NCBI GenBank assembly: GCA_041658285.1
Contig: JBBAAP010000002.1
Span: 44,252-108,251 of the forward strand
From: Candidatus Brocadiia bacterium
GTDB taxonomy: Bacteria; Planctomycetota; MHYJ01; JACQXL01
Reading direction: 5' to 3'
DNA length: 64,000 bases
Of the stretch, positions 1,736 through 59,177 are shown in pieces (positions within the stretch are counted from its first letter, which is position 1; each line of letters begins with the position of its first letter). The notes under the pieces are model-generated. The model made no database searches. It saw only the letters and a list, made by a program, of their open reading frames with translations, and had not been told where the DNA came from. Both the position numbers and the translations under genes were made by a program.

Positions 1736-1762
1736 TGTCTAATATAACGCTCTAAGCCATGA

Positions 1763-2128
1763 CTATATTTTATTAGCAGTAAATACTTTTTCGAAATCGA
1801 ACCCGTTCTTAAAATCTTCCCGAGAATCCTTCTCGGTTTTACCCAGCAGCCCGTTTTCGACCAAGTTAAATACTATCTCACCGAAATCCTCTGATGTGCG
1901 AACACCCCAGGTGTAAAAAACGGTCTTGCCCATCGGGCCGAATTGCTCCAACGCATAATCACGTATACCTTCCAGTAATTCCTGGCCGGTCACATGCCGG
2001 CGTTCGCCGATGCGTTTTATGGTGTATTCTAACGCCTCATAGACAAAAGCATATGCCTCTCGAGCATAGCGGGCGTCCTTTTTCAGAATTGAGGCCAGTT
2101 CTTCAGATTTGTCTTCCATTAAAGGCAA
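1763..2128 (-). CDS. Conserved hypothetical protein (121 aa, acidic)
   Basis: This is a clean ORF lying between the kinase and metG. I recognise no catalytic motif. Confidence 0.35.
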   Translation of the reverse strand: MPLMEDKSEELASILKKDARYAREAYAFVYEALEYTIKRIGERRHVTGQELLEGIRDYALEQFGPMGKTVFYTWGVRTSEDFGEIVFNLVENGLLGKTEKDSREDFKNGFDFEKVFTANKI

Positions 2129-2171
2129 GTATATTCCGAAACAGATTAAATGTCAAAATAAATCCATCCGC

Positions 2172-3728: not shown

Positions 3729-4659
3729 TGGTATCGTTCTTCCCGGGTTCTTTTTCCTGAACCTTAAGGGTCGGCTGCTTCATAATCTCAAGTATCTCAT
3801 CAGCTGTAACCTTTATTTTATCGCCGTTAGCAATCTCAACAAGAACGGATTGACTGAGCAAGTCTACGTTGATTATCTCTCCCGTTCCTTTGGGGGTCCT
3901 GACAACAGCGCCTTTTCTGGGCAACTGGGTTTTAAGCTCGTTATAGAAAGCGTCCTCGAATCGCAGGCAACACATCAAACGACCACAATAACCTGAAATC
4001 TTGGTCGGATCCAGCGTCGTCTTCTGGGTTTTAGCCATCCTCATAGTCACGGGCTCAAGTTCCTTAACACAAGTCTTGCAACAAAGTTCATGCCCGCAAT
4101 GACCGACATCACCCAGCAGACGCGCCTCATCACGCACGCCGACCTGGTGCATCTCAATCCGCGTGCGGTATTCCTTGGCCAGTTCCTTGACAAGTTCCCT
4201 AAAATCAATACGGCCTTCGGCCATAAAATAGAATACTATCTTCTCCCCGCCCAGCAGGTATTCTACATAAACAATATTTATAGGCAGGTTAAATGCCTTG
4301 GCTTTTTCGGCGCAAAACTTTAATGCGGCCGGTTTTTTTTCCTTCTCTATCTTCTTAAGCTCTTCTAAATCCTGTACCGACAGCTTGCGCAAAATCTCAC
4401 CCATCCGGATCTGTGTCGACTGAGGCGCCGGCGAAGGTTGTGACGGAGCGGCCGAATTTACTGCCGGTTGCGCCTGCTGATTTGGAATGCCTGCCGACTG
4501 GAGCGGCTGCACCAGCTCCGGCTGGGACATGACCGTGCCGATTTCAGTACCCCGGTCGGTCCTGATAACACACTTGTCGCCCAGCTTCAGTCCCGGGACA
4601 TTCCCGTTAAAATTAGAAATCAGCTGTTCCGCGCCATAACGAATCGTTATTAACCACAT
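3718..4659 (-). CDS. yaaT: PSP1 domain protein (RicT/YaaT family)
   Basis: It has the PSP1 signature GYCGRLMCCLRFE and HCGHELCCKTC. It sits at the conserved position next to holB and tmk. Confidence 0.7.
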   Translation of the reverse strand: MWLITIRYGAEQLISNFNGNVPGLKLGDKCVIRTDRGTEIGTVMSQPELVQPLQSAGIPNQQAQPAVNSAAPSQPSPAPQSTQIRMGEILRKLSVQDLEELKKIEKEKKPAALKFCAEKAKAFNLPINIVYVEYLLGGEKIVFYFMAEGRIDFRELVKELAKEYRTRIEMHQVGVRDEARLLGDVGHCGHELCCKTCVKELEPVTMRMAKTQKTTLDPTKISGYCGRLMCCLRFEDAFYNELKTQLPRKGAVVRTPKGTGEIINVDLLSQSVLVEIANGDKIKVTADEILEIMKQPTLKVQEKEPGKNDTNVK

Positions 4660-4664
4660 ATTTA

Positions 4665-5705
4665 TTATGAAGCCTTTCTTAACAGCCTGCTGACATTAAG
4701 CAGGATGTTTTCCGTCACTAAAGTTATGTTGGCATTAAGCCTGATATATTGCTCGCCGGCCAGTATCTGCTCTATGGCCAAGCGCACTGAATCAGTATTA
4801 ACCGCCTTGTACCATTTCTTGATCTCTCCAGCCTTATCCTGATTAATTACAAATATATCTTTTATATAACCGGATAGCAATATATCTCGGAGAAAAAGTC
4901 CTATCATTTTGAATTGCTGGATAATCTTTTCCCTCTGTTTTTCCATCGAGGCATTTCCGGACTTGGCATAATCCATCATCCCAAATGAAATATCCTGAAA
5001 CGGGTTATCAGCGCACAGGCTGTCTATCAGCCATTTGCGCTGGTCCAGAATGTTACTTGAATGTATCCTCATACCGCTGCCGATGCTGCCATCCGAAAGA
5101 TAAGCCAGCAGCCTGGCTTCGGGCTGGGTCACTTTAAGGTTGTCCGTAAAAAACTTCTCCAATATTACCTGCTTTATCGGGTAAAAATGAATCGTCTGGC
5201 ATCTCGATACCACCGTGGGAAGAATTGATTCCGGATGCGCCGTAACCAGTATGAAAATACAATCCTTGGGCGGCTCCTCCAGTGATTTTAACAGCGCGTT
5301 GGCTGCGTCCTGATCCATCCGGTCGGCATCGTTGAATATGAATATCCGGCTGCCGGTGATAAACGGCCTCATGGCGATTTCATCCTCCACCTGGCGTACC
5401 GTATCTATAGATATGGTCTGTTTGTCTTCAGGAACTTCGTTTACGTGCAGGTTGGGATGAGCCCCTTTTTCCGCCCAGTTGCATGACCGGCATTGGCCAA
5501 CCGCCCGGCTGGCCCGTTCGGACGGGCATCCCGTGCCTTTGTCGCATAACAATACCCTGGCCAGCGCCAGGGCGAAATGAAGCTTGCCCACGCCCTCCGG
5601 CCCGGCGAAAAGATACGTATGCCCCAAACGCTTTGAATCTATCGCCTTGCTAAATATCTCCGCGGCCGGTTCCTGTCCAATAACACCGCTGAATCCTTTA
5701 TTCAT
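4665..5705 (-). CDS. holB: DNA polymerase III subunit delta'
   Basis: It has an AAA+ clamp-loader fold with GPEGVGK, a zinc module CPSERASRAVGQCRSC and SRC. It sits in tmk-holB synteny. Confidence 0.8.
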   Translation of the reverse strand: MNKGFSGVIGQEPAAEIFSKAIDSKRLGHTYLFAGPEGVGKLHFALALARVLLCDKGTGCPSERASRAVGQCRSCNWAEKGAHPNLHVNEVPEDKQTISIDTVRQVEDEIAMRPFITGSRIFIFNDADRMDQDAANALLKSLEEPPKDCIFILVTAHPESILPTVVSRCQTIHFYPIKQVILEKFFTDNLKVTQPEARLLAYLSDGSIGSGMRIHSSNILDQRKWLIDSLCADNPFQDISFGMMDYAKSGNASMEKQREKIIQQFKMIGLFLRDILLSGYIKDIFVINQDKAGEIKKWYKAVNTDSVRLAIEQILAGEQYIRLNANITLVTENILLNVSRLLRKAS

Positions 5706-5710
5706 ATATA

Positions 5711-6352
5711 TTATTTTAACCGCAGTTTCCTAGCCACGATATTTACCAGCTCTTTATGGACCTGGCTGACCGGCCGGTCCGCGTCAATCAGCGCCGAATT
5801 TGCGCCCGAACGGCCCAGCGCCCTGAAACCCAGCCGGACCTTGCGGTGGAAAGCCAGTTTTTTCCTCTCCATCCGGTCAAACGAGCTCCTGACGCCTTTC
5901 TTGATCCGGTTCAATCCAGCATCAGACTTGATATCCAAAATAACCAGGGCGTCCGGCTTCAGTCCGCACGTGGCGATCTCGCACATTTGCATTATGCTGT
6001 TGCGGTTGATTCCTCCGCCGTAACCCTGATAAGCGATGGTTGATGACAGGAACCTGTCCGCGATAACGGTTTTGCCCAGCCGTAATGCCGGTATGATGAC
6101 ATCGGCCACCAGTTGCGCCCGGCTGGCCATATACAGGAAAAGCTCCGTTTCCGGAGTCATCCGCTTATTGCGCGTATCCAGCAGTATCCGCCTGATCTGT
6201 TCGCTGATGGCGGTCGAGCCCGGTTCGCGCACCACACAAACATTATGGCCGCGGCGCTTCAGGTAACCGGCCAGCAGCTTCACCTGGGTCGATTTACCTG
6301 AACCATCCGGGCCGTCTATGACAATAAACTTTCCCTGTTTCATATTAATCAA
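5711..6352 (-). CDS. tmk: Thymidylate kinase
   Basis: It has the P-loop IVIDGPDGSGKST, a DR motif and a LID region. Confidence 0.9.
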   Translation of the reverse strand: MINMKQGKFIVIDGPDGSGKSTQVKLLAGYLKRRGHNVCVVREPGSTAISEQIRRILLDTRNKRMTPETELFLYMASRAQLVADVIIPALRLGKTVIADRFLSSTIAYQGYGGGINRNSIMQMCEIATCGLKPDALVILDIKSDAGLNRIKKGVRSSFDRMERKKLAFHRKVRLGFRALGRSGANSALIDADRPVSQVHKELVNIVARKLRLK

Positions 6353-6393
6353 TAAAAATTACTTACAACACCCATAAAGTCAAGTATTTTCTC

Positions 6394-6421
6394 TTGACGC
6401 CGGTTGCAAAAAGAATAAAAT
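6394..6421 (+). promoter_or_regulatory. Sigma70-like promoter upstream of ruvC (TTGACG-N16-TAAAAT), with a very short leader
   Basis: TTGACG lies at 6394-6399 and TAAAAT at 6416-6421. The ATG is at 6431, which suggests a near-leaderless transcript. Confidence 0.35.
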
Positions 6422-6430
6422 AGCGCGGAA

Positions 6431-6919
6431 ATGAATCAAAGAATACTCGGCATTGACCCGGGCACGCTGGTAGTCGGATACTGCATCCTTGATATAACCG
6501 GCATTAATAACAAATCCCGGATTGTCGAATACGGCATAGTCAAAGCCTCCACTAAAGATAACAAAGATTTAGGAAGCCGGCTTAACAAGATATACCAGGA
6601 ACTAACCGAGATAATCAAGCTCCACAAACCGACCGCGATGGCGCTGGAAAACGTCTTCTACGCCAAGGACGTCCAGGCAATGGTCAAGCTGGGCGAAGGC
6701 CGGGCCATCGCTATCCTGGCCGCGGCGCAAGCCGGTATCCCCCTCTTTGAATACTCGCCGGCCGAGGTCAAGAAGTCCGTCACCGGCAACGGCCGGGCCG
6801 ATAAGACCCAGGTGGCCGAGATGGTCAAGCACATCCTGGGATTATCCGAAATTCCCAAACCGGCTGACGCCTCCGACGCCATCGCCATCGCTCTCTGCCA
6901 TACCCATCGAACTCTCTAA
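6431..6919 (+). CDS. ruvC: Crossover junction endodeoxyribonuclease RuvC
   Basis: ILGIDPGTLVVGYCIL is the RNase H-like fold with the catalytic Asp. The 162 aa length is typical. Confidence 0.85.
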   Translation: MNQRILGIDPGTLVVGYCILDITGINNKSRIVEYGIVKASTKDNKDLGSRLNKIYQELTEIIKLHKPTAMALENVFYAKDVQAMVKLGEGRAIAILAAAQAGIPLFEYSPAEVKKSVTGNGRADKTQVAEMVKHILGLSEIPKPADASDAIAIALCHTHRTL

Positions 6920-7045
6920 CCACTGAAGGCACTGAAATCACTGAATTCAATCTTGATCTGTGGCTCCGTGGTTATCTTCCTTCCCCTAAAAAATAATTAT
7001 TCGCGCTTTCGTGTAGATTCGTGTTCATTCGTGGTTAAATTTGGC

Positions 7046-7816
7046 TCAGCGGCGTTGCCGCATCACCTCGGCCAGCACGATGGCCGTAGAATGGCTCAAT
7101 GACAGGGACGGCACTTCTTTTGGATTTGCGTGTTTATCCGGATTAAGCGGCATGGGAATGGTGAAAAATCCGCTGCATAATTCCCTGAGCGCACCGGACA
7201 ACCCGCGTTTTTCGCCACCCAACGCCATTACCACCGGCCCGGTGAAATCGATGTCATACATCGTCCGCCGTACCCGGGGCATCGCACCGAAAACCTTGAG
7301 ACCGGATTTCTTCAGTTCGGGCAGGATATCGGATTCCCTTTCCACCTTGACTAACGGCATCCATTCATAAACGCCGGCCGAGGCGCGCGAAACGGCCAGC
7401 TGGTCGAAATTCCAGATATGCTTCTTCAGCAAGACCGCGTCCACGCCTATCGCCCCGGCCGTGCGGAGGATGAATCCCAGGTTCTGCTCGTCTTCAACGC
7501 CTTCCAATAACAGCAGGAACGGAGACACTTTTGACTTCTTTACCAAAGTCAGCAATTCCTCCGGCTTGGTCAGCGGCCTGTTTGAAGCAAGCGCAATCAG
7601 GCCGGCGTGAGTGCCGCCCTTGCTCATCTTGTCCAGCTCTTCCGGCGAACAGGTCTTGACCGGCACGCCCTGCTGTTCGGCCAAAGCAATGACATCCTGC
7701 GTCTTCTCGCGATGAGCGCTCCAGGACACCAGAATCAATTCAAACCTTCTCTGGCGCGCCTGTAACGCCGAAAGAATACACTGTCTGCCTTCAAGTTGTT
7801 CTGACATATCAATCAA
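7046..7816 (-). CDS. TrmH/SpoU-family RNA 2'-O-methyltransferase (RlmB-like)
   Basis: The SPOUT motifs are LLLLEGVEDEQNLGFILRTAGAIGVDAVLL and ALGGEKRGL. Confidence 0.75.
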   Translation of the reverse strand: MIDMSEQLEGRQCILSALQARQRRFELILVSWSAHREKTQDVIALAEQQGVPVKTCSPEELDKMSKGGTHAGLIALASNRPLTKPEELLTLVKKSKVSPFLLLLEGVEDEQNLGFILRTAGAIGVDAVLLKKHIWNFDQLAVSRASAGVYEWMPLVKVERESDILPELKKSGLKVFGAMPRVRRTMYDIDFTGPVVMALGGEKRGLSGALRELCSGFFTIPMPLNPDKHANPKEVPSLSLSHSTAIVLAEVMRQRR

Positions 7817-7993
7817 TCATCGCATTCTTTTATCCGGCTGTCAAGCTTAGCCACGGATTAACACGGATGAATTACAAACACTAATGCACTCGAATAGACA
7901 CAAATAATTTATTATTTTCACTATTTCGGTCTTTCGTGGTCGAAATTAATCTTAATCAATGGCCTCCGTGTCCTCTGTGGCTGAATTGAGCAG

Positions 7994-8947
7994 CTATTTG
8001 GACTTGCCCGACCTGGGATGTGCTTTGTCGTAGACCTCTTTGAGCCGGGTAGTGGTGACGTGGGTATATATCTGGGTGGTAGAGATGCTCCGATGGCCAA
8101 GCAATTCCTGGACGCCGCGCAAATCGGCGCCGTGGTCCAACAGGTGCGTGGCAAACGTATGGCGTAAAGTATGCGGCGATATCTTGCGGTTATTCAGGCC
8201 GCTCAACCCGGCATAAAGCGTGATATTACGCCGGATGCTCCGGTCCGTCAGGTGTGCCGATTTGTGCCGGCTGTGGCTGACGAACAGAAACGAATTCAGT
8301 TCGACCGATTCGCCGCTGATTTGTTTGCGCTCGCTTAGATATTTCTCAATGGCCTTGACGGCGTAACTGCCGATGGGCACCAGCCGTTCCTTTTTCCCCT
8401 TGCCCAGCACATGAGCCACCGAGCTGGACAAATCCACATCCTTGATGCGCAGGTTGGCTATCTCGCTGACCCGCACCCCGCTGCTGTAAAGGAACTCCAT
8501 AATCGCCTCGTCCCGCAGTCCGATGATGCCCGTAGCATAAGCCTTTTTGCCCCTGATGACAGCCAGAGGCTCGAGCAGCATCTTGTTCATCTCCTGCTCG
8601 CTCAGGAACTCCGGTATCTTTTTGTCCAACCGCGGCTGGCGTATCAGAACCATCGGGTTACTTTCGATAAAACGGTTCTGAAGCAAGTACTTAAAAAACG
8701 ATTTAAGCGCGGCAATCTTGCGGGCGATGGACGCCTTCTGCAGGTTCACCTCCCGCATATGGAGCAGATAACTCCGAAGGGTCAGGTTGTCAATGGCCTT
8801 GGGGTCAGGGAAAACTTTGGCGTTACTGCTTTTGGCCACGAAGGTGATGAATTGGTCCAAGTCCTTGGCGTAAGCCCGGAGCGTTTCCGGCGAGTAATTC
8901 CGGTTGTATTGCAGGTGTTCCAGGAAATTCTTAACGTAATCGGCCAT
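7994..8947 (-). CDS. xerC: Tyrosine recombinase XerC/XerD
   Basis: The N-terminal core-binding region is LRAYAKDL. The C-terminal catalytic region is HTLRHTFATHLL...LLGHRSISTTQIYTHV with the catalytic Tyr. Confidence 0.8.
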   Translation of the reverse strand: MADYVKNFLEHLQYNRNYSPETLRAYAKDLDQFITFVAKSSNAKVFPDPKAIDNLTLRSYLLHMREVNLQKASIARKIAALKSFFKYLLQNRFIESNPMVLIRQPRLDKKIPEFLSEQEMNKMLLEPLAVIRGKKAYATGIIGLRDEAIMEFLYSSGVRVSEIANLRIKDVDLSSSVAHVLGKGKKERLVPIGSYAVKAIEKYLSERKQISGESVELNSFLFVSHSRHKSAHLTDRSIRRNITLYAGLSGLNNRKISPHTLRHTFATHLLDHGADLRGVQELLGHRSISTTQIYTHVTTTRLKEVYDKAHPRSGKSK

Positions 8948-9111
8948 AAATATTCTTACTGCCGGTCTTCGATTCTCAGTTATCTTATCGGCAAAAACAG
9001 CCGGTCCGGCTCAGGAATTAGCCGTAAACCAAAATCCGCCGGAACGGCCCGGCGCCATTCCTGCATTAAACGCGCTTTCGCAGAGATATCGGCAATAACC
9101 GGTATTTTTGC

Positions 9112-9140
9112 TTGACAAATTTAATAATATTAGCATTATG
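9112..9140 (+). promoter_or_regulatory. Sigma70-like promoter (TTGACA-N17-ATTATG) for the 9146 gene
   Basis: TTGACA lies at 9112-9117 and a -10-like hexamer about 17 nt downstream. The start codon follows about 5 nt after that. Confidence 0.3.
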
Positions 9141-9145
9141 CAACT

Positions 9146-10225
9146 ATGCGCAGGAAAATAATACTCGCCTTAGGATTGATTGCCTTAATCTCAACCAATA
9201 TAATCTTATCATCGGCCGATGATGCCGAGCTGGCCGGAGCCGTCTACCAATCCGGCCTGAACGCCTTTAAGCAAAACAAGTTCGATGATGCCGCCCAAAA
9301 ATTCGCCCGGGCGCTGGAATACAAAAGCGATTATACCGAGGCTATGTTCAAGCTGGCCGAGTGCCACGAAAAACTCCGTAATAGCCAGCAGGCCGTCCGG
9401 TATTACCGCCAATCGGCCCGGCAGGTTGCCTCCAAAACCGACTCCTCCACGGAAGAACGCAACATCCTCCAGCAATCGCGTAAAGTGCTTGAAAAACTCG
9501 ATGTCCGCGGCACCCAGTTCAATACCGCCAAATCCAAGCAAATTGACATCCTGCTCAAGATGGCCAACGACTGCGCCGGACGAAAGTACTTTGGCTTCGC
9601 CCGCAGGATTTACGAACAGATACTGATTATCGACCCCGGCAACAAAACCGCCGCCGACGCCATGGAAAAACTGGCCGCCGGCCAACCGGTCGAAAGCCCG
9701 GATTCCAAAACCGCCGGCAAGGCCAAATCAGTATTCAACGGCAAAAACCTGGACGGCTGGCAGTTCGACAGCAACATCTGGCTTAACCTCTGGTCTATCG
9801 AGGAAGGCTGCCTGGCATTCAACAAAAAACCCTTGTCGCCCAAGGCCGGACCCAGCCTCGAGCCCAGCGCCCTGAAACTCGCCGGACAACTGCCGGACAA
9901 CTACGTCATGTCAATGGAAATGTTCATCGAAAAGCGCCTGCCGTCCGCGCGCGAATGCTGTATCAGCTTCCTTTACGGCGAATCCAAAATACCACAGGGC
10001 CAGGCCAATATCATCACCATGCAACGGGCCAAGATAAACTTCGAAAAGACCGGCATCTGGGAAAAGATAAAATTTACCAAGAAAGGCAACGAATACGCCA
10101 TCGAAGGCGCCAACACCAAGAAATTCAACGGCGTCTTCGAACCCTACAATACCCAATGCATCGGCTTTTACATCCACGGCTTCGTCGTCAAAATCCGCAA
10201 TATCACCGTCAAGGAAACTCAATAG
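9146..10225 (+). CDS. Secreted protein with an N-terminal TPR-like helical region and a C-terminal DUF1080 (LamG-like jelly-roll / 3-keto-disaccharide hydrolase family) domain
   Basis: It has a signal peptide MRRKIILALGLIALIST, and KSVFNGKNLDGWQF...WSIEEGCLAF matches DUF1080-type proteins. Confidence 0.5.
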   Translation: MRRKIILALGLIALISTNIILSSADDAELAGAVYQSGLNAFKQNKFDDAAQKFARALEYKSDYTEAMFKLAECHEKLRNSQQAVRYYRQSARQVASKTDSSTEERNILQQSRKVLEKLDVRGTQFNTAKSKQIDILLKMANDCAGRKYFGFARRIYEQILIIDPGNKTAADAMEKLAAGQPVESPDSKTAGKAKSVFNGKNLDGWQFDSNIWLNLWSIEEGCLAFNKKPLSPKAGPSLEPSALKLAGQLPDNYVMSMEMFIEKRLPSARECCISFLYGESKIPQGQANIITMQRAKINFEKTGIWEKIKFTKKGNEYAIEGANTKKFNGVFEPYNTQCIGFYIHGFVVKIRNITVKETQ

Positions 10226-10351
10226 GATACTACCCACCAATAGAGTTTCCATCTTTTTTCATCCCTTCGTGCTTTCGTGGTAAAAAAAGGCTGGACTAAA
10301 AATAGTATTCTCTGTGTTCTCCGTGTCCTCAGTGGTTAAATAGCGGCACTC

Positions 10352-10993
10352 TTATCTTAAAAACCTACTCGCCTTGGCGAAAAGATGCACCCAGAGCGGG
10401 CTGGTCCGCCTAATAAGGTGGGCCGATGACAGGTTGTGTTTGAACTCCTGGGCTGATGTAAACGGCTCGATTTCCACGCAGGCCGCCCCGTATTCGGACC
10501 GGGTATGCGCGTCACTGCCGGCCGTAATGACCTTGTTATGAAGTTGTGCAAATCGTCTGGCCTCGTCGTTATCGGCGCTGAAAAGGTTGCGCGCATTGAA
10601 TCCCTCGATGATGTCCACCTGCCCGGCTATCCGTTTCAGGGCCTCGAAACTGAGTCGCGACTTGCGTAGGCGGCAGAACGGGTGCGGCACGCCCACCAGA
10701 CCGCCCTGGGCCTTTATCCGGTTGATGGTTTCCTCCGGAGACAGCCCGGCCGAAATGGGCTGAGTCAGGAAGAATCCGATAATCTCGCCCTCGGCCGTAT
10801 GGATTTCTTCGGACACGATGACCGTAAACCCGGCCGGAGCCATGGCTTTGAGTGCCAGCGCGCCGGTGATGGTATTATGGTCGGTCACGGCCAGGCCGTC
10901 CAGGTGCTTTTGCCGGGCCACCCTAAGGACGTTAGCCAGGGACAGCGTCCCGTCCGGTGAATAATTGGTATGGACATGGCAATCAATCCTCAT
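10352..10993 (-). CDS. PHP-domain metal-dependent phosphoesterase
   Basis: MRIDCHVHTNYSPDG...VTDHNTI is the PHP signature. The start is moved from the table's GTG at 11020 to the ATG at 10993, because that GTG lies inside the conserved intergenic CACGAAT motif. Confidence 0.75.
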   Translation of the reverse strand: MRIDCHVHTNYSPDGTLSLANVLRVARQKHLDGLAVTDHNTITGALALKAMAPAGFTVIVSEEIHTAEGEIIGFFLTQPISAGLSPEETINRIKAQGGLVGVPHPFCRLRKSRLSFEALKRIAGQVDIIEGFNARNLFSADNDEARRFAQLHNKVITAGSDAHTRSEYGAACVEIEPFTSAQEFKHNLSSAHLIRRTSPLWVHLFAKASRFLR

Positions 10994-11317
10994 CGTCCAT
11001 AGATTAACACGAATAAACACGAATGACTACTAATTTAGATATTTAATTTAAGTAAGCGGACCCGCCTGACTGACGCCCACCCGGATGAATATCCGTTCGG
11101 ACGGGTAGTCGGACAGGTTTAGCAGATATTGCAGATAAGTATAAATAATAAGGGCGCTGGGATTAGCCCAGCGCCCACCTTCGTGTCAATTCGAATTTAT
11201 TCGTGCATATTCGTGTTTATTCTAGGTATCCGCGTAACCAAATATTTATCGAAGTGAACACGCCATTCTTTCTTAGTGCTACTAGGAACAACGTGACGTA
11301 GAGGCAGTGCGTAGCCT

Positions 11318-11447: not shown

Positions 11448-12572
11448 CTATTCAATGTATCCCTTAACCCATATGTTCGTAGATGTGAACACACCCGATT
11501 TGGTTATCAGCACCTTAATCATCCGTGTCCCATCAGTGGCAAGAGTGGCTTCCTTATACGCATTATTATTCACCCCTACCGTGTTCTGCCATATAAAATG
11601 TATAGTACTTGACCCATAATCCGCACCGGACCGTCTGCCAAGAACCGTGAGTATCTGCTCCATCCCGACCGGGACGCTCATTGCGTTCAACTGCATCTCC
11701 AATATTACAGCAGTCGCCGTAACCGGAATCACCGCCGACAGGTCTATGAGCTGGTCCACATCCGTCATCGAGTTCTCGGAGAACACCAAGGTTTGAGACG
11801 GCAACAGGGTCAACTGCATCCCGCCCGCACCGCCGGTAGGCGGAGCTATCCAATTGAATTTACCCGTCGCCGCATCGAAAGACAGAATCTGCCCGTCCGT
11901 AGGCGGAGCCAGGTTATAGAGCAGTTCGTGGTTGATGGATGCCAGCGCAATCTTGACCCAATCAACGGCCCGGTCGGCAATCTTTCCGTTGGTAATACTT
12001 GTCTCTGCCAACTTGTCTCCGGTCACAGCCAGGTCTGCTATCTCGTCCGTCGCCACTGGCGGAACGAGCGGCCTCGTGACACCGCCAGCCATCGGTTTCC
12101 ATTCCAGCTTGAGTTGTGCCGCATTGTATGTAGGAACCTCACCGTCTGCCGGAGAATCTATCGCCGCTAATTTGGTCGGGGTGACTTCGCCCGCGCCGAT
12201 TTTGGATGAAGTAACCGCGCCTTCGTTGAGTTTGATGGATGTAACCGAGTGGGTGTCCAATTTATCAGGGGTTATGGCGCCATCGGCGATTTTCTGAGCC
12301 ACTATCGCCCCATCGGCTATCTTAGCCGTACCAACGGCATTATCGGGCAAAGGCGTAAGGGTAATGTCCGGACCGAGCTTAGCCGCGGTCACGGCACCGT
12401 CGGAGATATCATCGGTCTGGACCTGCCCGGCTCCGATATCGGCTCCGGTAATGGTCTCATCCTTAATCTTAGCCGTGGTCACGGAATTATCGGCAATCTT
12501 ATCTTCCGTGACTGCCTGTTCCGAAATCTGGGGCGAGGTCACCTCGCCATTTGCGTATCTGTGTCTGAACAT
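11448..12572 (-). CDS. Phage tail-fibre-like repeat protein: about 12 tandem ~11 aa repeats (consensus I-x-D-G-A-V-T-x-x-K-I/L) with a C-terminal globular head domain
   Basis: The repeats run ...AVTAAKLGPD...AVGTAKIADGAIVAQKIADGAITPDKLDTHSVTSIKLNEGAVTSSKIGAGEVTPTKL. The start is set at the ATG at 12572, preceded by the Shine-Dalgarno sequence AAGGGGG. The ORF-table start at 12662 covers the motif region. Confidence 0.5.
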   Translation of the reverse strand: MFRHRYANGEVTSPQISEQAVTEDKIADNSVTTAKIKDETITGADIGAGQVQTDDISDGAVTAAKLGPDITLTPLPDNAVGTAKIADGAIVAQKIADGAITPDKLDTHSVTSIKLNEGAVTSSKIGAGEVTPTKLAAIDSPADGEVPTYNAAQLKLEWKPMAGGVTRPLVPPVATDEIADLAVTGDKLAETSITNGKIADRAVDWVKIALASINHELLYNLAPPTDGQILSFDAATGKFNWIAPPTGGAGGMQLTLLPSQTLVFSENSMTDVDQLIDLSAVIPVTATAVILEMQLNAMSVPVGMEQILTVLGRRSGADYGSSTIHFIWQNTVGVNNNAYKEATLATDGTRMIKVLITKSGVFTSTNIWVKGYIE

Positions 12573-12730
12573 ATAGTTAACCCCCTTTTTAACACGAATT
12601 ACACGAATAGGACTAATCCCGCTAATATTTTTTATTCGTGCCCTTCGTATTATTAGTAACATTCGAGTTCTAATTAAAGTGCGGTCGGGGACGCCCCGCC
12701 CGTGCGAAGCGTCCCACTCGCACTGCCATA

Positions 12731-13531
12731 CTAAATCAGCACTATCCTTGCCCTGAGTTTGAGCGCGCCGCTGTTGACGTCGCTTTCATACTGGAGCACA
12801 GAATCAGTGGCCGTACCTCCAACCACGAACGGTTTTACCGTTGCAGCCTTGAAGGAATTAGCCAGGTCAGTCAGCCTGGTGTTCTGGGCGGCCAGTTCGG
12901 TCGCTTCCATATCCGCCTTAATAATTGAGATGCCGGTAATAACCAGCAAACTCGTTACGGCTGACTTGAACTGCTGTCTCAATCCAGTTTTGGTGAAGTC
13001 GTAAGGCCCGCCGTTGACAACCTCCATATGGTTGGTCATCCGGTTGGCCCGGGCATCACCGGTCATCCAATAGGTAACCTGCGGGACAATCAAACCCCTG
13101 ATTCGGTCCCCGGTAATCCTAAGGAGTCCCTTAGCCACGCCATTGGCCCAACGGTCCTTGGCCGCGTTTACCTTACCTTTAAAGAGCTTAGCCACTACAC
13201 CATCAATGGTCTCGAAAGCCTGGTCCAGGTGCTCCCGAAACTTGGCATAGGCGTTGGTCAAGCCCTTGTAATGGGCCTGACGGATGTTAGATGCGCTCCG
13301 ACCCGACTTAGCCACGAACCCCGGCGCAACCATAGGTCCCCATTTCTGGTTGCCAGGTTCCGCGACCTTTGACTGGTATTCCCCGTCATCGGGCAGAATC
13401 TCCACTATCCGATCGTGCATACGCTGGGCGTTGTTAGTCAAACCCTCAACCCACCGGTCCGGCATATCGCCCGACGGCTCAATGCTCGGAGGTATCGTTA
13501 CCAAAATATCCAGTTTAATTTCGTCTGCCAT
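12731..13531 (-). CDS. Hypothetical protein co-oriented with the fibre-like gene, possibly structural
   Basis: This 266 aa ORF has the RBS GTGAGG. I recognise no motifs. Confidence 0.35.
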   Translation of the reverse strand: MADEIKLDILVTIPPSIEPSGDMPDRWVEGLTNNAQRMHDRIVEILPDDGEYQSKVAEPGNQKWGPMVAPGFVAKSGRSASNIRQAHYKGLTNAYAKFREHLDQAFETIDGVVAKLFKGKVNAAKDRWANGVAKGLLRITGDRIRGLIVPQVTYWMTGDARANRMTNHMEVVNGGPYDFTKTGLRQQFKSAVTSLLVITGISIIKADMEATELAAQNTRLTDLANSFKAATVKPFVVGGTATDSVLQYESDVNSGALKLRARIVLI

Positions 13532-13726
13532 AAAAACCTCACTACCGAAGATATATCATAATCAGCCCAGCCGAGCCGCCGCGCCTTGCTCACCGCTCAC
13601 AGTGCGGCGTGGCGCCGATGACGGCCTCGGCTGAACTGTGGATTCACTTACGGTTCTTCTTTCCTTCAAGGTAATCCAAAATAATCCCAATGACTACCTG
13701 GATTATCCTCCTCCAGAAACCTGACA

Positions 13727-14470
13727 TCATTTGAAACATATATTGTTCTCCTCCAGAAAATCATAGATTTCCTGTATAGGTACAATTCCGCCCATAGTAG
13801 TTATAAGTTGGTCTTTATAAACCCTGACCCAAACAGAAATACCGATGACCTCATAGGTAGAGGCGTTCCCGTCATTCGACGGGACTAACGCGAACACCGG
13901 ACCGCCTGAGTTACCCGGTAAAATAGGAGCCGATATTTCGCAATAACCCGGCTCGATTATTGAGATGATGCCGTATGAAGGTCGCACCTTTAAGCCAAGC
14001 GAGCATCCAACGGCATAAACCGGGGTAAATATGTAAGGGGTATAATTCCGCGGAGCCAGAGTAGCGGAATAATTACAAATTCCAGATTTCAGATTACAGA
14101 TTTTAATTAAAGCCAGGTCTTTGGCGGTATCGGTCACCAATACCGTGGCATCAATCTCAATGTATTCGGGGTAAAACAACTCTACGGTTACGATCGATTC
14201 GTTATCAACCACGTGAGCGGCCGTTATTATGTAACCGTTAATAATAACGCCTGAACCGCAAGAAAACCCGGCCTTTATCCTGACGGTGGTATAGAGCATA
14301 GACTCGTAAAGCCCCTCAAACGGATTAACCGGCCCAACCTGCACCGGAACCTCCTTAGACAGGTCAATAACAAAGGTCTCGCCTTCAGGCGGCTCAAAGA
14401 CGCACCCGCCGACCATCGCAATTGACAAAAACCAATAAATTAATATCCTTCTCACTTGTGGTGTAACCAT
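13727..14470 (-). CDS. Trypsin-like (S1, HtrA/DegS-like catalytic core) serine protease, probable lipoprotein, with no PDZ domain
   Basis: The signal peptide has a lipobox-like VGGC. The catalytic His is in ITAAHVV and the catalytic Ser in GNSGGPVF. Confidence 0.7.
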   Translation of the reverse strand: MVTPQVRRILIYWFLSIAMVGGCVFEPPEGETFVIDLSKEVPVQVGPVNPFEGLYESMLYTTVRIKAGFSCGSGVIINGYIITAAHVVDNESIVTVELFYPEYIEIDATVLVTDTAKDLALIKICNLKSGICNYSATLAPRNYTPYIFTPVYAVGCSLGLKVRPSYGIISIIEPGYCEISAPILPGNSGGPVFALVPSNDGNASTYEVIGISVWVRVYKDQLITTMGGIVPIQEIYDFLEENNICFK

Positions 14471-14473
14471 AAA

Positions 14474-14701
14474 TCACCTATCCTCTCCGAAAAAGTTATC
14501 CAGCCATTCCCAGCGCGAGGTATTGGCGCAGTCCATCGGTTCGCTTATTTTAGGCGTAACCGTCACCGGTCCAGCCTCGTTTTCCGGGAATAAGGCGTCA
14601 TAGCAATACCGGCACAGCCGGACCCGCCGACAGGCGAAGGATATGATATCCCATTCCCGGGGTAGCTCCTTACCGCATTCTTTACACATCTTTCTTTCCA
14701 T
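14474..14701 (-). CDS. Small zinc-ribbon protein (CxxC...CxxC)
   Basis: MCKECGKEL...CRYC. It is the first gene of the protease operon. Confidence 0.4.
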   Translation of the reverse strand: MERKMCKECGKELPREWDIISFACRRVRLCRYCYDALFPENEAGPVTVTPKISEPMDCANTSRWEWLDNFFGEDR

Positions 14702-15047
14702 ATATACCTACCTTTTTAGTGGCTGTTAGCAACTCCGATGACCATCGGAGTGGCGTTATCTGCCACTTATCCCGACTATTCCGTCGGGGCCGGGGGGCTC
14801 TTCACTCTCTCCCCCATATATACACCCGTCGAGAACCACGAATGTCACAGGAAAAATGAGAATTTTGTAAAAATAATTCAGAAAGTTTTATGCCAAAGGC
14901 ACCATGCCCGAGGCAGGCGGAGACGAAGATTAAGCCGATTTAGCCGACAGGGTAGATTCCTTGACATAACCGGTTCAATCCTGTATAGATTCACGCCTTA
15001 CCCCGCTCTATCCGTCTTCATCCAAGAGCGGGAGACAGTTTATTGTT

Positions 15048-15077
15048 GCGGGATAACCCGCCGTAAGGCTCTCGTGG
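15048..15077 (+). promoter_or_regulatory. Candidate ECF-sigma-type promoter (GGGATAAC-N15-CGTG) 57 nt upstream of the sigma gene. The element has a second copy at 59124-59152.
   Basis: AAC and CGT lie 15 nt apart. The 30-mer recurs with 28/30 identity at 59124. Confidence 0.3.
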
Positions 15078-15134
15078 CTCCTTTAGCGCCACTGCGAAAC
15101 TAACGGACATCCCGCTTTCAGCAGGATTCGGCTT

Positions 15135-15755
15135 ATGCAGCAAGACACAAGAAGCGATGAGCAGTTGGCACGGGCATTTAAACTGGGCGAGGACCGGGCT
15201 TTCGACGAGCTCTACCGCAGGTATCTCAACCGTCTGCGTTTTTATATTTTAAAAATCAGCTGGTTCAAGGACGACATCTACCTCGAAGAAGTACTCCAGC
15301 AAATATTTATCGTCGTCTGCCAGGGGATAAAAATCGGCAAATTCGCGCCCTGGGATTATGTGCCGTCCGAAAAGATGAGCGGTACCTTCCGACGCTGGAT
15401 TTTTACGGTGGCACGGATTGAATGCTACAAACAGGACGAAAAACGCTCCTCCGGGCCGGTGCTGATGCCCAAACAGATCGCCGACGCCCTGCCGGACATG
15501 TTGGCCGATATGCGGCCGGATGCGGTTGAAGAGGTGGAGTCGCATCAGCACTTGACAAAAAAATTGGAAATGATACTATCGCACCTGACGGCGGATGACC
15601 AAAAGCTCTTCGAGCTGAAAAACAAAGGCGTAAAATACCAGGATATACTAAACGAGCCGGAGTTCAAAAACATACGCCTGGGCCCGCTCAGGATGCGATA
15701 CTGCCGAATACTGGACTTGATAAAAGAGTTATTAAAGAAAGACGAACAAGAATGA
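15135..15755 (+). CDS. ECF-type RNA polymerase sigma factor
   Basis: Region 2 is FDELYRRYLNRLRFY...FRRWIFTVARIECYKQDEKR and matches the FxxWLxxIARN...D..R pattern. The C-terminal region-4-like HTH is GVKYQDIL...RMRYCRILDLIKELL. Confidence 0.6.
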   Translation: MQQDTRSDEQLARAFKLGEDRAFDELYRRYLNRLRFYILKISWFKDDIYLEEVLQQIFIVVCQGIKIGKFAPWDYVPSEKMSGTFRRWIFTVARIECYKQDEKRSSGPVLMPKQIADALPDMLADMRPDAVEEVESHQHLTKKLEMILSHLTADDQKLFELKNKGVKYQDILNEPEFKNIRLGPLRMRYCRILDLIKELLKKDEQE

Positions 15756-16087
15756 AAAAAGAAAAGCCCGTCAAAAAGACCGTCCGCCGGGACAGTTGCG
15801 CCAAATACAAAATGGACATCCTGGACTACGTCACCGGAGATATGACTTTCATAACCGCGCAAAAACAGAAAGCACTGCTTATACACGTCCGGAAATGCCC
15901 CAGATGCCAGCAGGCATATTTTGAGTATGAAAACATCCACGCCGCGGCCCGAACCATAGGACGGGCCAAAAACCCGGCCTTCAAGGCGAAAATGGACGCT
16001 ATGCTCGAAACCATCAAGAAAAAATGCGCCAACAAAGGCGACAAGCCGCCAAGCTGTTCCGATGACAAGCCCGACAATAAAAAATAG
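15752..16087 (+). CDS. Zinc-binding anti-sigma factor (ZAS family, RsrA-like)
   Basis: C16...H46-x3-C49-x2-C52 (HVRKCPRC) matches the ZAS motif. It overlaps the sigma gene by 4 nt, has no TM helix, and carries extra Cys at 82 and 92. Confidence 0.55.
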   Translation: MKKEKPVKKTVRRDSCAKYKMDILDYVTGDMTFITAQKQKALLIHVRKCPRCQQAYFEYENIHAAARTIGRAKNPAFKAKMDAMLETIKKKCANKGDKPPSCSDDKPDNKK

Positions 16088-16576
16088 GGGTTATAGGGGT
16101 ACTCCATACCCCTAATCCCGGTTATCGACACAACCTATAAGGATTATCAACATCTACAGTCCCGGTTATTGACACCCCTAATACCGGTTATCAATATTCC
16201 TAATCCCGGTTATCGATACCCCCAATCCCGGTTATCGATACCCCTAATCCCGGTTATCAACATCCCTAATCCCGGTTTTCGATACTCCCTGCCTAAGTAA
16301 CGGTTATCTCCTATACCTGTTATCGATATCCCCTGTCCGGGTTTATCACACCTCCTATATAAATGGCCTACATCCCCTATCCGGGTTTATCACTCATCCG
16401 ATATAAATGGCCTACATCCCCTATCCCAGTTATCGATACCCACTACCCGAGCAGTAACCATCTCCTATACCGGTTTTCGATACACCCTATGCCCGTTTTC
16501 GATACACCCAATCCCGATTTACGATACAGGGATTAGGGGTTAGGGGGGAGGGGGGTAGGTATCTCCCCCCCCTCCA
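16088..16576. repeat. Degenerate tandem array of about 19 units of a 22 bp repeat (consensus CCTAATCCCGGTTATCGATACC, palindromic core TATCGATA), ending in a G-rich inverted repeat (GGGATTAGGGGTTAGGGGGGAGGGGGG...CTCCCCCCCCTCC)
   Basis: Direct reading shows units adjacent with no spacers. The central units are near-identical and the flanks degenerate. The array lies between the convergent anti-sigma and GT2 genes. Confidence 0.9.
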
Positions 16577-16769: not shown

Positions 16770-17705
16770 TTAGATATCGAAATTGATTCTTTCCTTTTCG
16801 ATAACCAAAGGCCTTTTGAATATCTGGGTATGAATAGCCCCGATATACTCGCCTAATATACCAAGGAAGAACAGTTGGACCGAAGCGAAAAAGAATAATC
16901 CGATGACTATAGGCGCAATACCTAATGAAAAACTCTGCCAGAAAATGATTTTATAGACTAAATAAGTAAAAGCCGTTAAGAAACTTATTGTACCCAGGAC
17001 AAAACCCACTATCGTCGCAAGCCTCAACGGTATCTTGGAATAACTGGTTATACCCACCATCGCCAGGTTATATAAGTAATAGAGATTTGTAGTGGTCCGG
17101 CCTTTATGGCGCGCCGGCTGGACGTATTCTATTCTGGCGGTCTCAAAACCTATTTCGGCAATAATACCCCTCAAGTAAGGATACATATCATTGATTTGCC
17201 TGAGGCTTTCTACCACCTTTTTATCGTACAGGCCAAAACCGGTAAAATGCTTTATCAACTCTGTGTTTGATAATTTGCCTAAAATCTTGTAGTATAAATT
17301 GCGCATAAATACCATGGGGAATGATTCTTTACGCCCTTTTATTATCCCTATCACTACTTTATAGCCCGATTCCCATTTCTTGATAAGTTCAGGTATCATC
17401 GATGGCGGGTCTTGCAAATCAGCCACGATTGAAATGGCCGCATCGCCTTTAGACTGCAACAATCCATAATAATGAGACCTCATGGCCTCAAAATTCCTGG
17501 AATTCACGATGATTTTAACATTTTTATCGTTTTGGGCGATTCCTTTTAATATTTCCACTGTCTTATCCTTGGACGCATTATCAATGAATATATGCTCGTA
17601 CTGGTAGTCTTTTAAATCAGCGAATACCTGCTTTACCTGTTTATAGACCTCGGCTACGTTTTCTTCCTCGTTATAGGTCGGCGTAACGATGCTTATTAGC
17701 TTCAT
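16770..17705 (-). CDS. GT2-family polyprenyl-phosphate glycosyltransferase (ArnC/GtrB/DPM1-like) with a C-terminal membrane anchor
   Basis: ISIVTPTYNEEENV carries the DxD-type GT-A motifs, and two C-terminal TM helices are present. It overlaps the GtrA-like gene by 4 nt. Confidence 0.8.
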   Translation of the reverse strand: MKLISIVTPTYNEEENVAEVYKQVKQVFADLKDYQYEHIFIDNASKDKTVEILKGIAQNDKNVKIIVNSRNFEAMRSHYYGLLQSKGDAAISIVADLQDPPSMIPELIKKWESGYKVVIGIIKGRKESFPMVFMRNLYYKILGKLSNTELIKHFTGFGLYDKKVVESLRQINDMYPYLRGIIAEIGFETARIEYVQPARHKGRTTTNLYYLYNLAMVGITSYSKIPLRLATIVGFVLGTISFLTAFTYLVYKIIFWQSFSLGIAPIVIGLFFFASVQLFFLGILGEYIGAIHTQIFKRPLVIEKERINFDI

Positions 17706-18070
17706 TTCTGCTCCTTGAATACGTATTTTTTATTAAGGATGAATGACAATACGGCCAGCGGCAATATCAATATCGCCCCGGCTAAATACATATTAACCTC
17801 TAACATATTGAATATTTTAAGGCAAGCTATATTCAACAGGTAAATAACCGCATAAACGCCTATGAATTTAAAAAGAAGGCTGTTACGGTTGCTTTTGAAT
17901 ACGAATATGCCGGTGGTCTTAAAATTGAAGAGCACGCCCAGAATGGTGGATGCCAAAGCGGCGATGGTATAATGCAGGCCGATATAAATAAATAATGCGT
18001 ATATGGAATATCCGAAAACGGTATTGACGCCGCCGACAATCAGAAAGCGTATGAATTGATGGTTCAGCAC
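17702..18070 (-). CDS. GtrA-family small membrane protein (polyprenyl-P-sugar flippase component-like)
   Basis: It has four TM helices, FIRFLIVGGVNTVFGY, and is 122 aa long. Confidence 0.7.
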   Translation of the reverse strand: MLNHQFIRFLIVGGVNTVFGYSIYALFIYIGLHYTIAALASTILGVLFNFKTTGIFVFKSNRNSLLFKFIGVYAVIYLLNIACLKIFNMLEVNMYLAGAILILPLAVLSFILNKKYVFKEQK

Positions 18071-29469: not shown

Positions 29470-29613
29470 ATTTTACTAAGTTTCAACCACGAATGTACAC
29501 GAATAAACACTAATATTATTTTTATTTTAACCGCGGATTATACTAATTTTACTGATTATTATTAATTTGTAATGTTACAAGTCTCTTTAAAGTCACTGTT
29601 ATATTCAATCTGA

Positions 29614-57567: not shown

Positions 57568-58437
57568 CTATAATTGCAGATGTCTGAGTTGATTATCCGG
57601 CACGCGGAATCCCGACCAGTGCACGTATTCCTCGGTAGGCAGATTTTCGTATTGTTTCGGCGTGAGCGCCAGTATGAAACCGCCCTGAACGCTTATCTTG
57701 CGGTAATGCAGTTCGGCAAAGAACTTGTCATTGGGCATATCGGCGTGAATGCTCTTTAGCGTCTTAAAATCGTGGTAATCCTGGTTACTTCCGACGAAGC
57801 CGTCATAGGCGCTGTCTTTGACGTAATAAAGGTCTTTCCTCTTGTAATATTTATCCAACGCCTGGCTCCAAAAAAATATGCCTTTGACGCCGGTGGTGCC
57901 GTAGGAATATTTATGATCCAGCATATAACGGCTGACCTCGGTACGGATAAAGCGCCAGACTCCGGCAATCTTGGTAGCCGGCAGTTTGCCTTCCCTGACC
58001 AGCCGGTAAATCGTCCGGCGGTTGACGCCTAGCGCCTGGGCCACCTGATTCAAGGTCATCACCCCGCCCTCAAAGTTCATCCCTAAAACATGGCCGGGCA
58101 CATCGCGGCTATGAGTCAGGAATTGACGAACCTCTGACTGAAGAAACTGCCACCTGCCGCCTAACTTTACAGCGGGCAACTTCTTCACATTAATTAACCG
58201 ATAAATGGTAAACCGGCTTAGGCCCAGATATTCGCAGACCTCTTTCAGGGTCATCAGGCCGGGTTTAATAATGTATTTGGTTGGCGTTTTGTATACAAGC
58301 AGTTTCTCAACGTCCTTCTGTTCAAAACGCCACTGTCCGCCGATGCGCTTGGCAGGCAATTTCCCTGATTTGAGCAACCGGTAAACCGTGCGGGTAGAGA
58401 TACCCAGTTGTTTACAGACGTCATTTACAGTTAGCAT
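57568..58437 (-). CDS. DNA-binding protein with three tandem excisionase/MerR-type HTH domains and a ~140 aa uncharacterised C-terminal domain
   Basis: Three tandem copies of the LT(V/L)xxVxxxLG(I/L/V)SxxT(V/I)YRL(L/I)xxGKLPAxK(I/L)GGxWRF pattern. Confidence 0.6.
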   Translation of the reverse strand: MLTVNDVCKQLGISTRTVYRLLKSGKLPAKRIGGQWRFEQKDVEKLLVYKTPTKYIIKPGLMTLKEVCEYLGLSRFTIYRLINVKKLPAVKLGGRWQFLQSEVRQFLTHSRDVPGHVLGMNFEGGVMTLNQVAQALGVNRRTIYRLVREGKLPATKIAGVWRFIRTEVSRYMLDHKYSYGTTGVKGIFFWSQALDKYYKRKDLYYVKDSAYDGFVGSNQDYHDFKTLKSIHADMPNDKFFAELHYRKISVQGGFILALTPKQYENLPTEEYVHWSGFRVPDNQLRHLQL

Positions 58438-58582
58438 ATAAGTTATGTAAGCGGATTTAGCTGATTTATCAGATTTAGAACCATCGGCTTAATCTGCTTA
58501 ATCAGCTTACTAAACAGGACAAAATATGACAAGAAATGTAGTGCAATGTTGCAGGATAGGACAGGCTATGGCACTGACCAGT

Positions 58583-58936
58583 ACCTACACTACTACTACC
58601 CCCTGCCTACACCTCTACCACCCCTGGCCTACACCTCTACTACCTCTGGCCTGCACCTCTACTACCTCCGGCCTGCACCTCTACTACCTCCGGCCTACAC
58701 CTCTACTACCTCCAGCCTACACCTCTACTACCTCCAGCCTGCACCTCTACTACCTCCAGCCTACACCTCTACTACCCCCGGCCTACACCTCTACTACCTC
58801 CGGCCTTCACCTCTACTACCTCCGGCCTACACCTCTACTACCTCTGGCCTACACCTCTACTACCCCCGACCTACATCTATACTACCCCTGACTTACACCC
58901 ATATTACCTCCGGCTTACAGTCCTACCACTATCGGC
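58583..58936. repeat. Degenerate tandem array of about 16 units of a 22 bp pyrimidine-rich repeat (consensus CCTACACCTCTACTACCTCCGG)
   Basis: Direct reading shows near-identical central units and degenerate flanks, with no spacers. The six-frame ORFs here (58526..58891, 58546..58980) are translation artefacts of the repeat. Confidence 0.9.
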
Positions 58937-58957: not shown

Positions 58958-59010
58958 AATGTGTGACGTCGCACATTTGAGAGCAGGTATAATGTTAGAC
59001 GTCTAACATT
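58958..59010. promoter_or_regulatory. Two 20 bp palindromes centred on GACGTC (AATGTGTGACGTCGCACATT and AATGTTAGACGTCTAACATT) spaced 33 bp centre-to-centre; candidate tandem operator for a dimeric regulator
   Basis: One is a perfect 20 bp palindrome and the other near-perfect (19/20). They lie immediately right of the 22 bp array. Confidence 0.4.
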
Positions 59011-59177
59011 TTACCAAGAAGGGTATTAAAAAAATGTTGGCCGGCAAACATTTACCAGATATGGTTATTGCGCTTCTATCCCGCTTTATTCATAAATGCC
59101 TTGCGGCGTTTGCATTCTGCGGTAGCGGGATAAACCGCCGTAAGGCTCTCGGGACCATCAAACTGCCAGAGTATAAT

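Follow-up and report, generated by a model that had tools for sequence, protein, structure and literature searches.

What, if anything, is the role of 418 bp of head-to-tail 22-bp repeats lying between the 3' ends of two convergent genes on a planctomycete chromosome? The question is raised by the array that we call W1, at positions 16109-16526 of the window (the whole 64,000-nucleotide stretch analysed here), which belongs to a 433-kb contig of a metagenome-assembled genome (MAG) named 'Candidatus Brocadiia bacterium' (Planctomycetota). Since the housekeeping proteins RuvC, DapB and AccA are encoded in the window, on a contig of this size that also has a tRNA synthetase gene, the DNA is chromosome and not plasmid. 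We find that W1 has relatives in this and other genomes, and that in intact members of the family 8-18 repeat units precede a conserved promoter, behind which lies the gene for a protein with three HTH_17 domains of the Xis/BldC type. Tentatively, and with somewhat under even confidence, we interpret W1 as an orphan, partly decayed member of this lineage-specific family of protein-binding 22-bp direct-repeat arrays in a Brocadiia-class clade.

The original prediction, made from the letters alone, had described about 19 tandem repeats of 22 bp, and this was confirmed: written in 22-base rows from 16109, W1 holds a single unbroken register over 19 units. By homology with the gene-linked arrays described below, the sense strand of W1 is the minus strand (consensus GGGGTATCGATAACCGGGATAG), and the sense strand is G-rich in all arrays. 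Twelve units match the core CCGGTTATCGATAC with at most 3 mismatches, all their spacings are exact multiples of 22, and the phase is unshifted across four unrecognisable units (rows 16285, 16351, 16395 and 16439). Tandem Repeats Finder (TRF) returned overlapping pieces with periods of 22, 44 and 66 and scores of 116-211, among them a stretch at 16328-16426 of period 44 with 92% matches, which is the basis for the 44-bp duplication listed in Table 1. The phased probe GGTTATC-N15 (x3) gave 2 matches against 0.00 expected in shuffles. The units abut, with no spacers anywhere in W1 and a period equal to the unit length of 22 bp, so the array is not a CRISPR array, as had been rightly stated. The hairpin after the upstream stop codon and the G-run inverted repeat at the far end were also found as described, the latter with a canonical G-quadruplex motif on the plus strand at 16529-16555. 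Other details did not hold. The central copies had been called near-identical, while the best-kept ones are units 4-8, and the 8-bp palindrome TATCGATA, reported for each unit, is exact in 4 of the 19 (16211, 16233, 16321 and 16431) and absent from all sister-array units compared. Unit-to-unit identity in W1 is 0.57-0.67, against 0.8-0.9 in most other arrays.

The array does not appear to be an artefact of assembly, a concern raised together with the original prediction. ENA ERZ27247322 and Logan SRR8449812 both carry the locus with 100% identity and the same copy number (the only two assemblies with the locus, from samples that may not be independent). The Logan contigs end at the G-run (16543-16561) and not within the array, and units merely 57-67% alike make assembly collapse unlikely.

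W1 is not without parallel: the window holds a second 22-bp array, W2, which stands upstream of a gene for a 289-residue protein. The segment between them carries a promoter with a -35 box TTGTCA, a 17-nt spacer and a -10 box TAAGCT. About 30 clusters of homologues of the protein were found, all of about 289 residues and all planctomycete wherever the organism is named. At ten distinct loci of triple helix-turn-helix (HTH) homologues that we examined, with protein identities of 48-82%, a 21/22-bp array lies directly upstream of the gene in 8 of 8 evaluable cases (Table 1), and the contigs L131 and L262 end exactly where the array would start. A conserved segment of about 90 bp separates array from gene and contains a good promoter of the sigma-70 type, directed towards the gene; a promoter segment of the W2 type follows the gene-linked arrays compared and is absent at W1. 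The genes flanking the module vary from genome to genome (GatB, LpxB, DprA, kinases, QRPTase) while array and gene stay paired, which argues that array, promoter and gene behave as one module and travel together; in one MAG it is present twice. At L126, L128 and L131, an extra gene for a 147-152-residue HTH_23/Terminase_5-like protein and 2.7 copies of a 23-bp repeat stand between array and gene.

Array units vary by locus and form types common to several genomes: the units of L126, L128 and M1 agree at 17/22 positions, those of M2 and M3 at 17/22, and those of W2 and L134 at 15/22. Such types persist across genomes whose triple-HTH proteins are about 65% identical, which points to constraint or mobility. 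W1 falls within this family. Its minus-strand consensus agrees with the L126 unit GGGTAATCTACACCCGGGATAT at 16/22 positions, against a null (best of 44 rotations and strands, 2000 trials) with a mean of 10.2, a 99th percentile of 13 and a maximum of 15.

A search of a genome collection with GGTTATC-N15 (x3) listed mostly unrelated 11-bp arrays, and the source genome was not among the matches listed; these did include three contigs of the congeneric Planctomycetota MAG JAZDFB01, which is syntenic with window positions 900-6907 at 78-89% nucleotide identity and where the window's 6920-11220 is missing. JAZDFB01 holds at least five 22-bp arrays (3-13 copies) in three loci and a 21-bp array in contig L125, with different units and a register that is equally strict. 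Two of its arrays at different loci have a common unit and a common 50-bp end module, and G-run/C-run caps are common to W1 and several of its arrays. On contig L061 (4456-4830 and 4850-5761), from the congeneric MAG, a 14-unit 22-bp array and a 3-unit array lie directly past the stop codon of a ParB-like gene and are convergent with that gene.

The period is 22 in W1, W2 and 9 further arrays of relatives, and 21 in two. In a periodicity census of about 150 kb of DNA of the clade, the non-coding periodic arrays were of period 22, 44 or 21 only. As arrays that no probe had selected (W2, array 1 of L040, L061 4456 and L125) share the 21/22-bp period, we regard the period as a property of the lineage and not an effect of the search. 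A metagenome search with CCGGGAT-N15 (x3) listed mostly unrelated short 22-bp arrays; there was no W1-type array among the matches listed, and the triple-HTH protein was encoded at none of those loci. Across unrelated metagenomes (contigs L136-L255), very many short 22-bp arrays of 3-6 copies have a GTCATCCCGG core in common; the unit CGACAACATCCCGGAGGGGTAG is found at more than one site, and in L139 and L165 it lies close to either end of the contig. The Bacteroidales MAG Gx485_bin121 carries an identical 22-bp array (AAAAGGGTTATCCCTTTTACCC) on at least 11 contigs, often at their ends (L014, L021, L043, L044, L053, L073, L080, L083, L099, L104 and L122), which is an independent dispersed 22-bp family in another phylum.

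The HTH_17 domains of the 289-residue protein span residues 1-48, 61-108 and 125-176 and are followed by a C-terminal domain of about 105 residues that matches no known family, either by sequence or by modelled structure. The AlphaFold2 model has a mean predicted local distance difference test score of 72, with the three winged-helix domains at about 82-85 and the alpha/beta C-terminal domain lower, at moderate confidence. By sequence, the nearest solved chains are RacA (5i41, domain 1, E = 0.02, the best), Pukovnik Xis and BldC. The modelled single domains superpose on BldC with a root-mean-square deviation of 1.2 Å over 48 residues and 35% identity; Xis, RacA, the pSK1 Par-centromere complex (8csh) and RdfS are further structural matches. 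BldC, Xis, RacA and pSK1 Par all engage repeated DNA, either cooperatively or in an architectural role. In the plasmid and phage collections, the full-length architecture is absent and protein matches cover a single or a double domain. More than 1000 plasmid records, from Klebsiella and other enterobacterial conjugative plasmids, encode a small protein aligning to two consecutive HTH_17 domains at about 30% identity.

All three domains have the fold of BldC, lambda Xis and 186 Apl, proteins that form cooperative head-to-tail arrays on direct repeats and short nucleoprotein filaments (PMC5859096; 10.1101/784983). BldC assembles there as cooperative multimers (PMC5859096), and Apl-type directionality factors use direct repeats one helical turn apart (10.1101/784983). 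These are single-domain proteins with 2-7 repeats of 9-11 bp, whereas here three domains are fused and joined to a C-terminal domain, the repeats number 8-19 and measure 22 bp, and arrays occur also as dispersed chromosomal orphans; binding here is presumed. StbA of R388, with its stbS repeats, and Par of pSK1 are single-protein partition systems with a repeat centromere within their own promoter, and resemble the present module in having direct repeats in or upstream of the promoter of an HTH-type protein gene and no motor (10.1101/2022.04.29.490116). They are plasmid-borne, with 7-10 copies of 9-12-bp repeats; our module, in contrast, lies on the chromosome, in some cases with two copies in a genome, and no binder gene adjoins W1. 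RacA, the best sequence match to domain 1, is a MerR/Xis-like winged-helix protein that marks chromosomal centromere-like sites (ram) in Bacillus subtilis, and it binds as a symmetric dimer to dispersed GC-rich 14-bp inverted sites, not to long tandem arrays (PMC5859096).

From these likenesses we hypothesized, as the likeliest mechanism, that the arrays serve as multi-site DNA platforms to which the triple-HTH protein or a paralogue would bind head-to-tail and cooperatively, in the manner of BldC, Xis and Apl or of StbA and pSK1 Par. At gene-linked arrays, such binding would lead to autoregulation, to a nucleoprotein complex, or to both. Orphan arrays such as W1 would be either additional platforms for binding or remnants of arrays that were once duplicated or transposed and have since ceased to be homogenised. 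The general idea of a cooperative protein-DNA array, put forward in the original prediction, stays plausible: intact family members have a centromere- or operator-like layout and a BldC/Xis-type protein. No binder gene is found beside W1 itself.

Several observations weigh against this interpretation. W1 has no triple-HTH gene, conserved promoter segment or palindromes alongside, and its units have diverged further than those of any other array compared, as those of a relic would; taken together, these features mark it as an orphan and probably an ageing copy, not a complete module. The only triple-HTH gene known in this genome adjoins W2, whose unit agrees with that of W1 at 11/22 positions, and for the congeneric MAG with orphan arrays the triple-HTH gene was not found (that MAG is incomplete). 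The repeats and their register, the membership of W1 in the family, the linkage of its sister arrays to the gene and the domain fold were observed; that the triple-HTH protein binds the arrays, and that W1 is bound to this day, is inferred. In domains 2 and 3 the recognition helices hardly vary while the array units differ strongly between loci, so the protein may read the promoter segment and not the array. Residues 15-16 of the domain-1 helix (TR, RR, VR, VI, IS) vary roughly with unit type, in a sample far too small to carry weight. Finally, the superperiod of 66 bp (3 x 22) predicted for three HTH domains was not found and was rejected (unit identity at lags 3 and 6 not elevated in any of 9 arrays, p > 0.5), though TRF gave high scores to periods of 66 bp.

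The main rival for W1 itself is that it is a neutral or selfish minisatellite, grown by slippage, unequal exchange and duplication with an inherited period, the HTH-linked arrays persisting by descent. We consider this on the unlikely side, and a serious contender all the same. Mycobacterial interspersed repetitive unit-variable number tandem repeat (MIRU-VNTR) loci and the tandem repeats of Borgs are likewise intergenic and tandem, with a uniform unit length across many loci and units that are related yet locus-specific and homogenised within each array; MIRUs measure 46-101 bp and overlap gene ends. Like those minisatellites, the present arrays are related tandem arrays at several intergenic loci (W1 and W2 here; five arrays in three loci and L125 in the relative). 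Unlike them, one class of array is tightly linked to a specific winged-helix gene, and we know of no dedicated binding-protein gene linked to MIRUs. Neutrality would fit the degeneracy of W1, its position with an island of ORFans on one side and, on the other, a polysaccharide cluster gained by horizontal transfer (both strain-specific), the non-orthologous sites of arrays in relatives and the many unrelated 22-bp arrays of other phyla and metagenomes. It would also fit the Kuenenia MBR1 genome, whose description counts 260 short tandem repeats and offers no explanation for them (PMC5854607). Whole-unit growth, as in the 44-bp duplication, can moreover hold the register without selection. Neutrality accounts less readily for an array kept upstream of the triple-HTH gene at all eight loci across 48-82% protein identity while the flanking genes change, for unit types conserved between genomes diverged far past neutral alignability, and for the absence of any net indel over the 418 bp of W1 despite about 40% substitution divergence between units.

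It is quite improbable that W1 acts through RNA or transcription, whether as a G-rich repeat RNA or as a capped terminator or insulator between convergent units. The position between convergent 3' ends and the consistently G-rich sense strand of all arrays are compatible with such a role, as are the caps: the hairpins are stable in both folds, and the left one (arms TAGGGGTA at 16094 and TACCCCTA at 16107) begins 7 nt past the stop codon of the upstream open reading frame and has a T6 run 11 nt beyond it on the minus strand. However, neither cap has a canonical U-tract directly past its stem, a separate terminator-like site follows the GT2 gene (16692-16675, minus strand), no Rfam family reached the gathering threshold for W1 (best match E = 0.99), and W1 folds no better than shuffles (z = -1.2 and -1.0). 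Orphan arrays are inconsistently oriented relative to their neighbour genes, and where an array is linked to a gene, the conserved promoter is found on its downstream side, so transcription from it does not cover the array.

A plasmid-type partition centromere, with ParR/parC-like iterons and palindromic dimer sites every two helical turns, had been suggested by the original prediction and is now very improbable. The direct repeats themselves, 19 and phased as in parC, sopC or tubC, with a period of about two helical turns, agree with it; so does the family, in which sister arrays stand centromere-like before a winged-helix gene whose product matches, among other structures, the centromere-binding domain of pSK1 Par. 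The idea fails because the context is chromosomal, with no extrachromosomal replicon, and because there is no motor and no adjacent binder gene: no ParA, ParM, TubZ, ParR or ParB gene adjoins W1, and Pfam annotations over about 10 kb on either side contain no ParA, ParM or TubZ. The dimer-site reading falls as well, with a palindrome that is inexact in all but 4 of the 19 units and has no place in the family. No DNA match to W1 was found in 72,556 plasmids or 50,697 phages.

The iterons of theta plasmids (R6K, pPS10, the Chlamydia plasmid) share with our arrays a 22-bp period, strict phasing and a place upstream of a DNA-binding protein gene; here, in contrast, there is no Rep_3/RepA-type initiator and no A+T-rich unwinding element, the copies are far more numerous and the loci are dispersed over the chromosome. 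We dismiss a DnaA-box cluster (datA-like titration) or iteron-type replication origin. In its favour, 22-bp iterons are classic in plasmid origins (e.g. the Chlamydia plasmid with its four repeats of that length, PMC3601068), phased direct repeats of 17-22 bp are present, and the cores TTATCGACA and TTATCAACA differ from the DnaA box TTATCCACA at a single position. That position, however, belongs to the stringent CACA part; most units deviate at 2-3 positions, the sister arrays have no such box, cumulative GC skew runs straight through 16 kb without inflection, the W1 neighbourhood has no rep-like Pfam match, and the true tandem DnaA-box arrays of other genomes consist of perfect boxes repeated every 11 bp. 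Perfect DnaA boxes in long arrays of 11-bp period (AGTTATCCACAGGTTATCCACA...) occur on several Ca. Binatia chromosomes (L008, L049, L072, L079, L082, L087, L092, L115, L116 and L118), on a small plasmid, Pantoea edessiphila pSOE2 (L025), and in Nitrosomonas (L048).

Table 1. Features of the W1 and W2 loci (window coordinates) and arrays upstream of triple-HTH genes.
Feature	Position	Strand	Remarks
Two ORFan genes left of W1 (206 and 111 aa)	15135..16087	+	earlier label sigma/anti-sigma unverified
Left cap hairpin TAGGGGTA-ctcca-TACCCCTA	16094..16114	.	stem kept in both folds
Array W1	16109..16526 (418 bp)	-	19 head-to-tail 22-bp units; plus-strand consensus CCCCTAATCCCGGTTATCGATA
Best-conserved block of W1, units 4-8	16175..16284	-	cores with 0-3 mismatches to CCGGTTATCGATAC
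44-bp higher-order repeat in W1, 2 copies	16329..16416	-	each a recognisable unit and a divergent unit
Inverted partial units ACAGGGATTAGGGGTTAGGGG	16526..16546	.	91-93% complementary to the CCCCTAATCCC half of W1 units
Right cap, G-run/C-run hairpin GGAGGGGGG-N11-CCCCCCTCC	16547..16575	.	from inverted-repeat search; Logan contigs break here
GT2 glycosyltransferase and GtrA-like genes	16770..18070	-	last genes of low-GC polysaccharide cluster, converging on W1
289-aa protein gene, three HTH_17	57568..58437	-	MFA5793921.1; candidate array-binding protein
Promoter/leader segment between W2 and gene	58438..58583	-	conserved, TGTCCTATCCTGCAACATT..ACTACATTTCTTGTCATATTTTG
Sister array W2, 15 x 22 bp	58584..58919	-	sense unit CCGGAGGTAGTAGAGGTGTAGG; unit identity 87-90%; TRF
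Three 20-bp palindromes AATGTnnGACGTCnnACATT	58958..59052	.	distal to W2; CRE-like TGACGTCA core
Array at W2 locus			15 copies
Array at L126			18 copies
Array at L128			at least 5 copies, contig end
Array at L129/L130			10 copies
Array at L132/L133			short 21- and 22-bp arrays
Array at L134/L135			9 copies
Array at L260/L261			11 copies
Array at L263			15.5 copies

The AATGTnnGACGTCnnACATT palindromes also stand beside arrays at L263 (88-139) and L061 (4388-4407), again on the distal side and in three genomes in all, against a chance expectation of 0.01 per window. They are limited to these three arrays and were rejected as a family-wide array flank. An internal 11-bp half-repeat was seen in W2 alone and was likewise rejected as a family trait.

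The neighbours of W1 are two ORFans, a trypsin-like protease, GT2, GtrA and aminotransferases; no tRNA was found in this context. The ORFans to the left have no homologue among 5.8 billion proteins, and the best homologues of GT2 to the right are at most 71% identical and come from many phyla, so both flanks look strain-specific; no orthologous W1 locus was found in relatives via the flanking genes. The ORFans had been labelled a sigma/anti-sigma pair, which we could not verify: no Pfam match reached E <= 0.01, with faint similarity to Sigma70_r2 (E 0.08) and r4_2 (E 0.15). They close a run of genes without recognisable families at 11448-16087, which also includes genes for a 404-residue repeat protein (homologue in L125) and open reading frames of 266 residues and of 75 residues (zinc-ribbon-like), with the trypsin-like protease at 13727-14470 within it.

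Other repeats and segments were recorded along the way. Window positions 6920-11220 encode a SpoU methylase, a tyrosine recombinase, a TPR protein and a PHP protein, are absent from the syntenic contig L125 of the relative and are probably an inserted island next to ruvC. A 9-bp motif (AAGCAGATT / TAAGCGGAT / AATCTGA) recurs just upstream of several start codons in the clade (window 43327-43391 and 58450-58509; L125 3129-3161; the leaders of L134, L262 and L263) and may be a shared leader or promoter-proximal element. Short tandem repeats of 9-10 bp, of the type CACGAATAAA / CACAGATAAA / TTCGTGTACA, are found repeatedly between genes, both in the window (7008-7033, 11006-11024, 11180-11222 and 29488-29515) and in related genomes (L126 4878-4908; L260 1830-1855; L262 4236-4265; L263 1621-1647). 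A short dispersed sequence of 82 bp is 83% identical between window 63919-63998 and the non-syntenic L125 8953-9034. The 144-150-bp repeats that TRF reports at 60596-61561 are coding, namely the RCC1 repeats of an 838-residue RCC1/fn3 protein (60524-63040).

Full-text literature searches returned no description of the 22-bp arrays or of the triple-HTH module. The family of arrays and module is previously undescribed. In kind it belongs with the known direct-repeat arrays on which winged helices of the Xis/BldC type act; what sets it apart is the fusion of three domains, a unit of 22 bp, array lengths of hundreds of bp and the dispersed orphans. A bolder proposal, which we regard as unlikely, is that this planctomycete clade has an unrecognised chromosomal DNA-organising system, in which a triple winged-helix protein polymerises on 22-bp arrays, with orphans as platforms. 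The cis array at the protein's own promoter would then be a self-contained, possibly mobile single-protein centromere or operator module, the many scattered orphan arrays, W1 among them, would act as anchoring, insulating or titration platforms, and the domain-1 helix residues may co-vary with array unit type.

Brocadiia-class planctomycetes include the anammox bacteria, have an unusual cell biology and are genetically almost intractable. Several contigs in these short-read assemblies end within 22-bp arrays; the arrays thus break such assemblies, and recognising them helps the curation of MAGs. Should the arrays prove to be neutral satellites, they would still be a lineage-specific minisatellite family with a fixed 22-bp period. 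If the favoured interpretation as protein-binding arrays is true, the head-to-tail mode of BldC and Xis would be extended to a protein with three covalently joined domains and to arrays hundreds of bp long, and long phased arrays paired with a dedicated triple winged-helix protein would offer a concrete and testable way into how the chromosome is organised or genes are controlled in this lineage.

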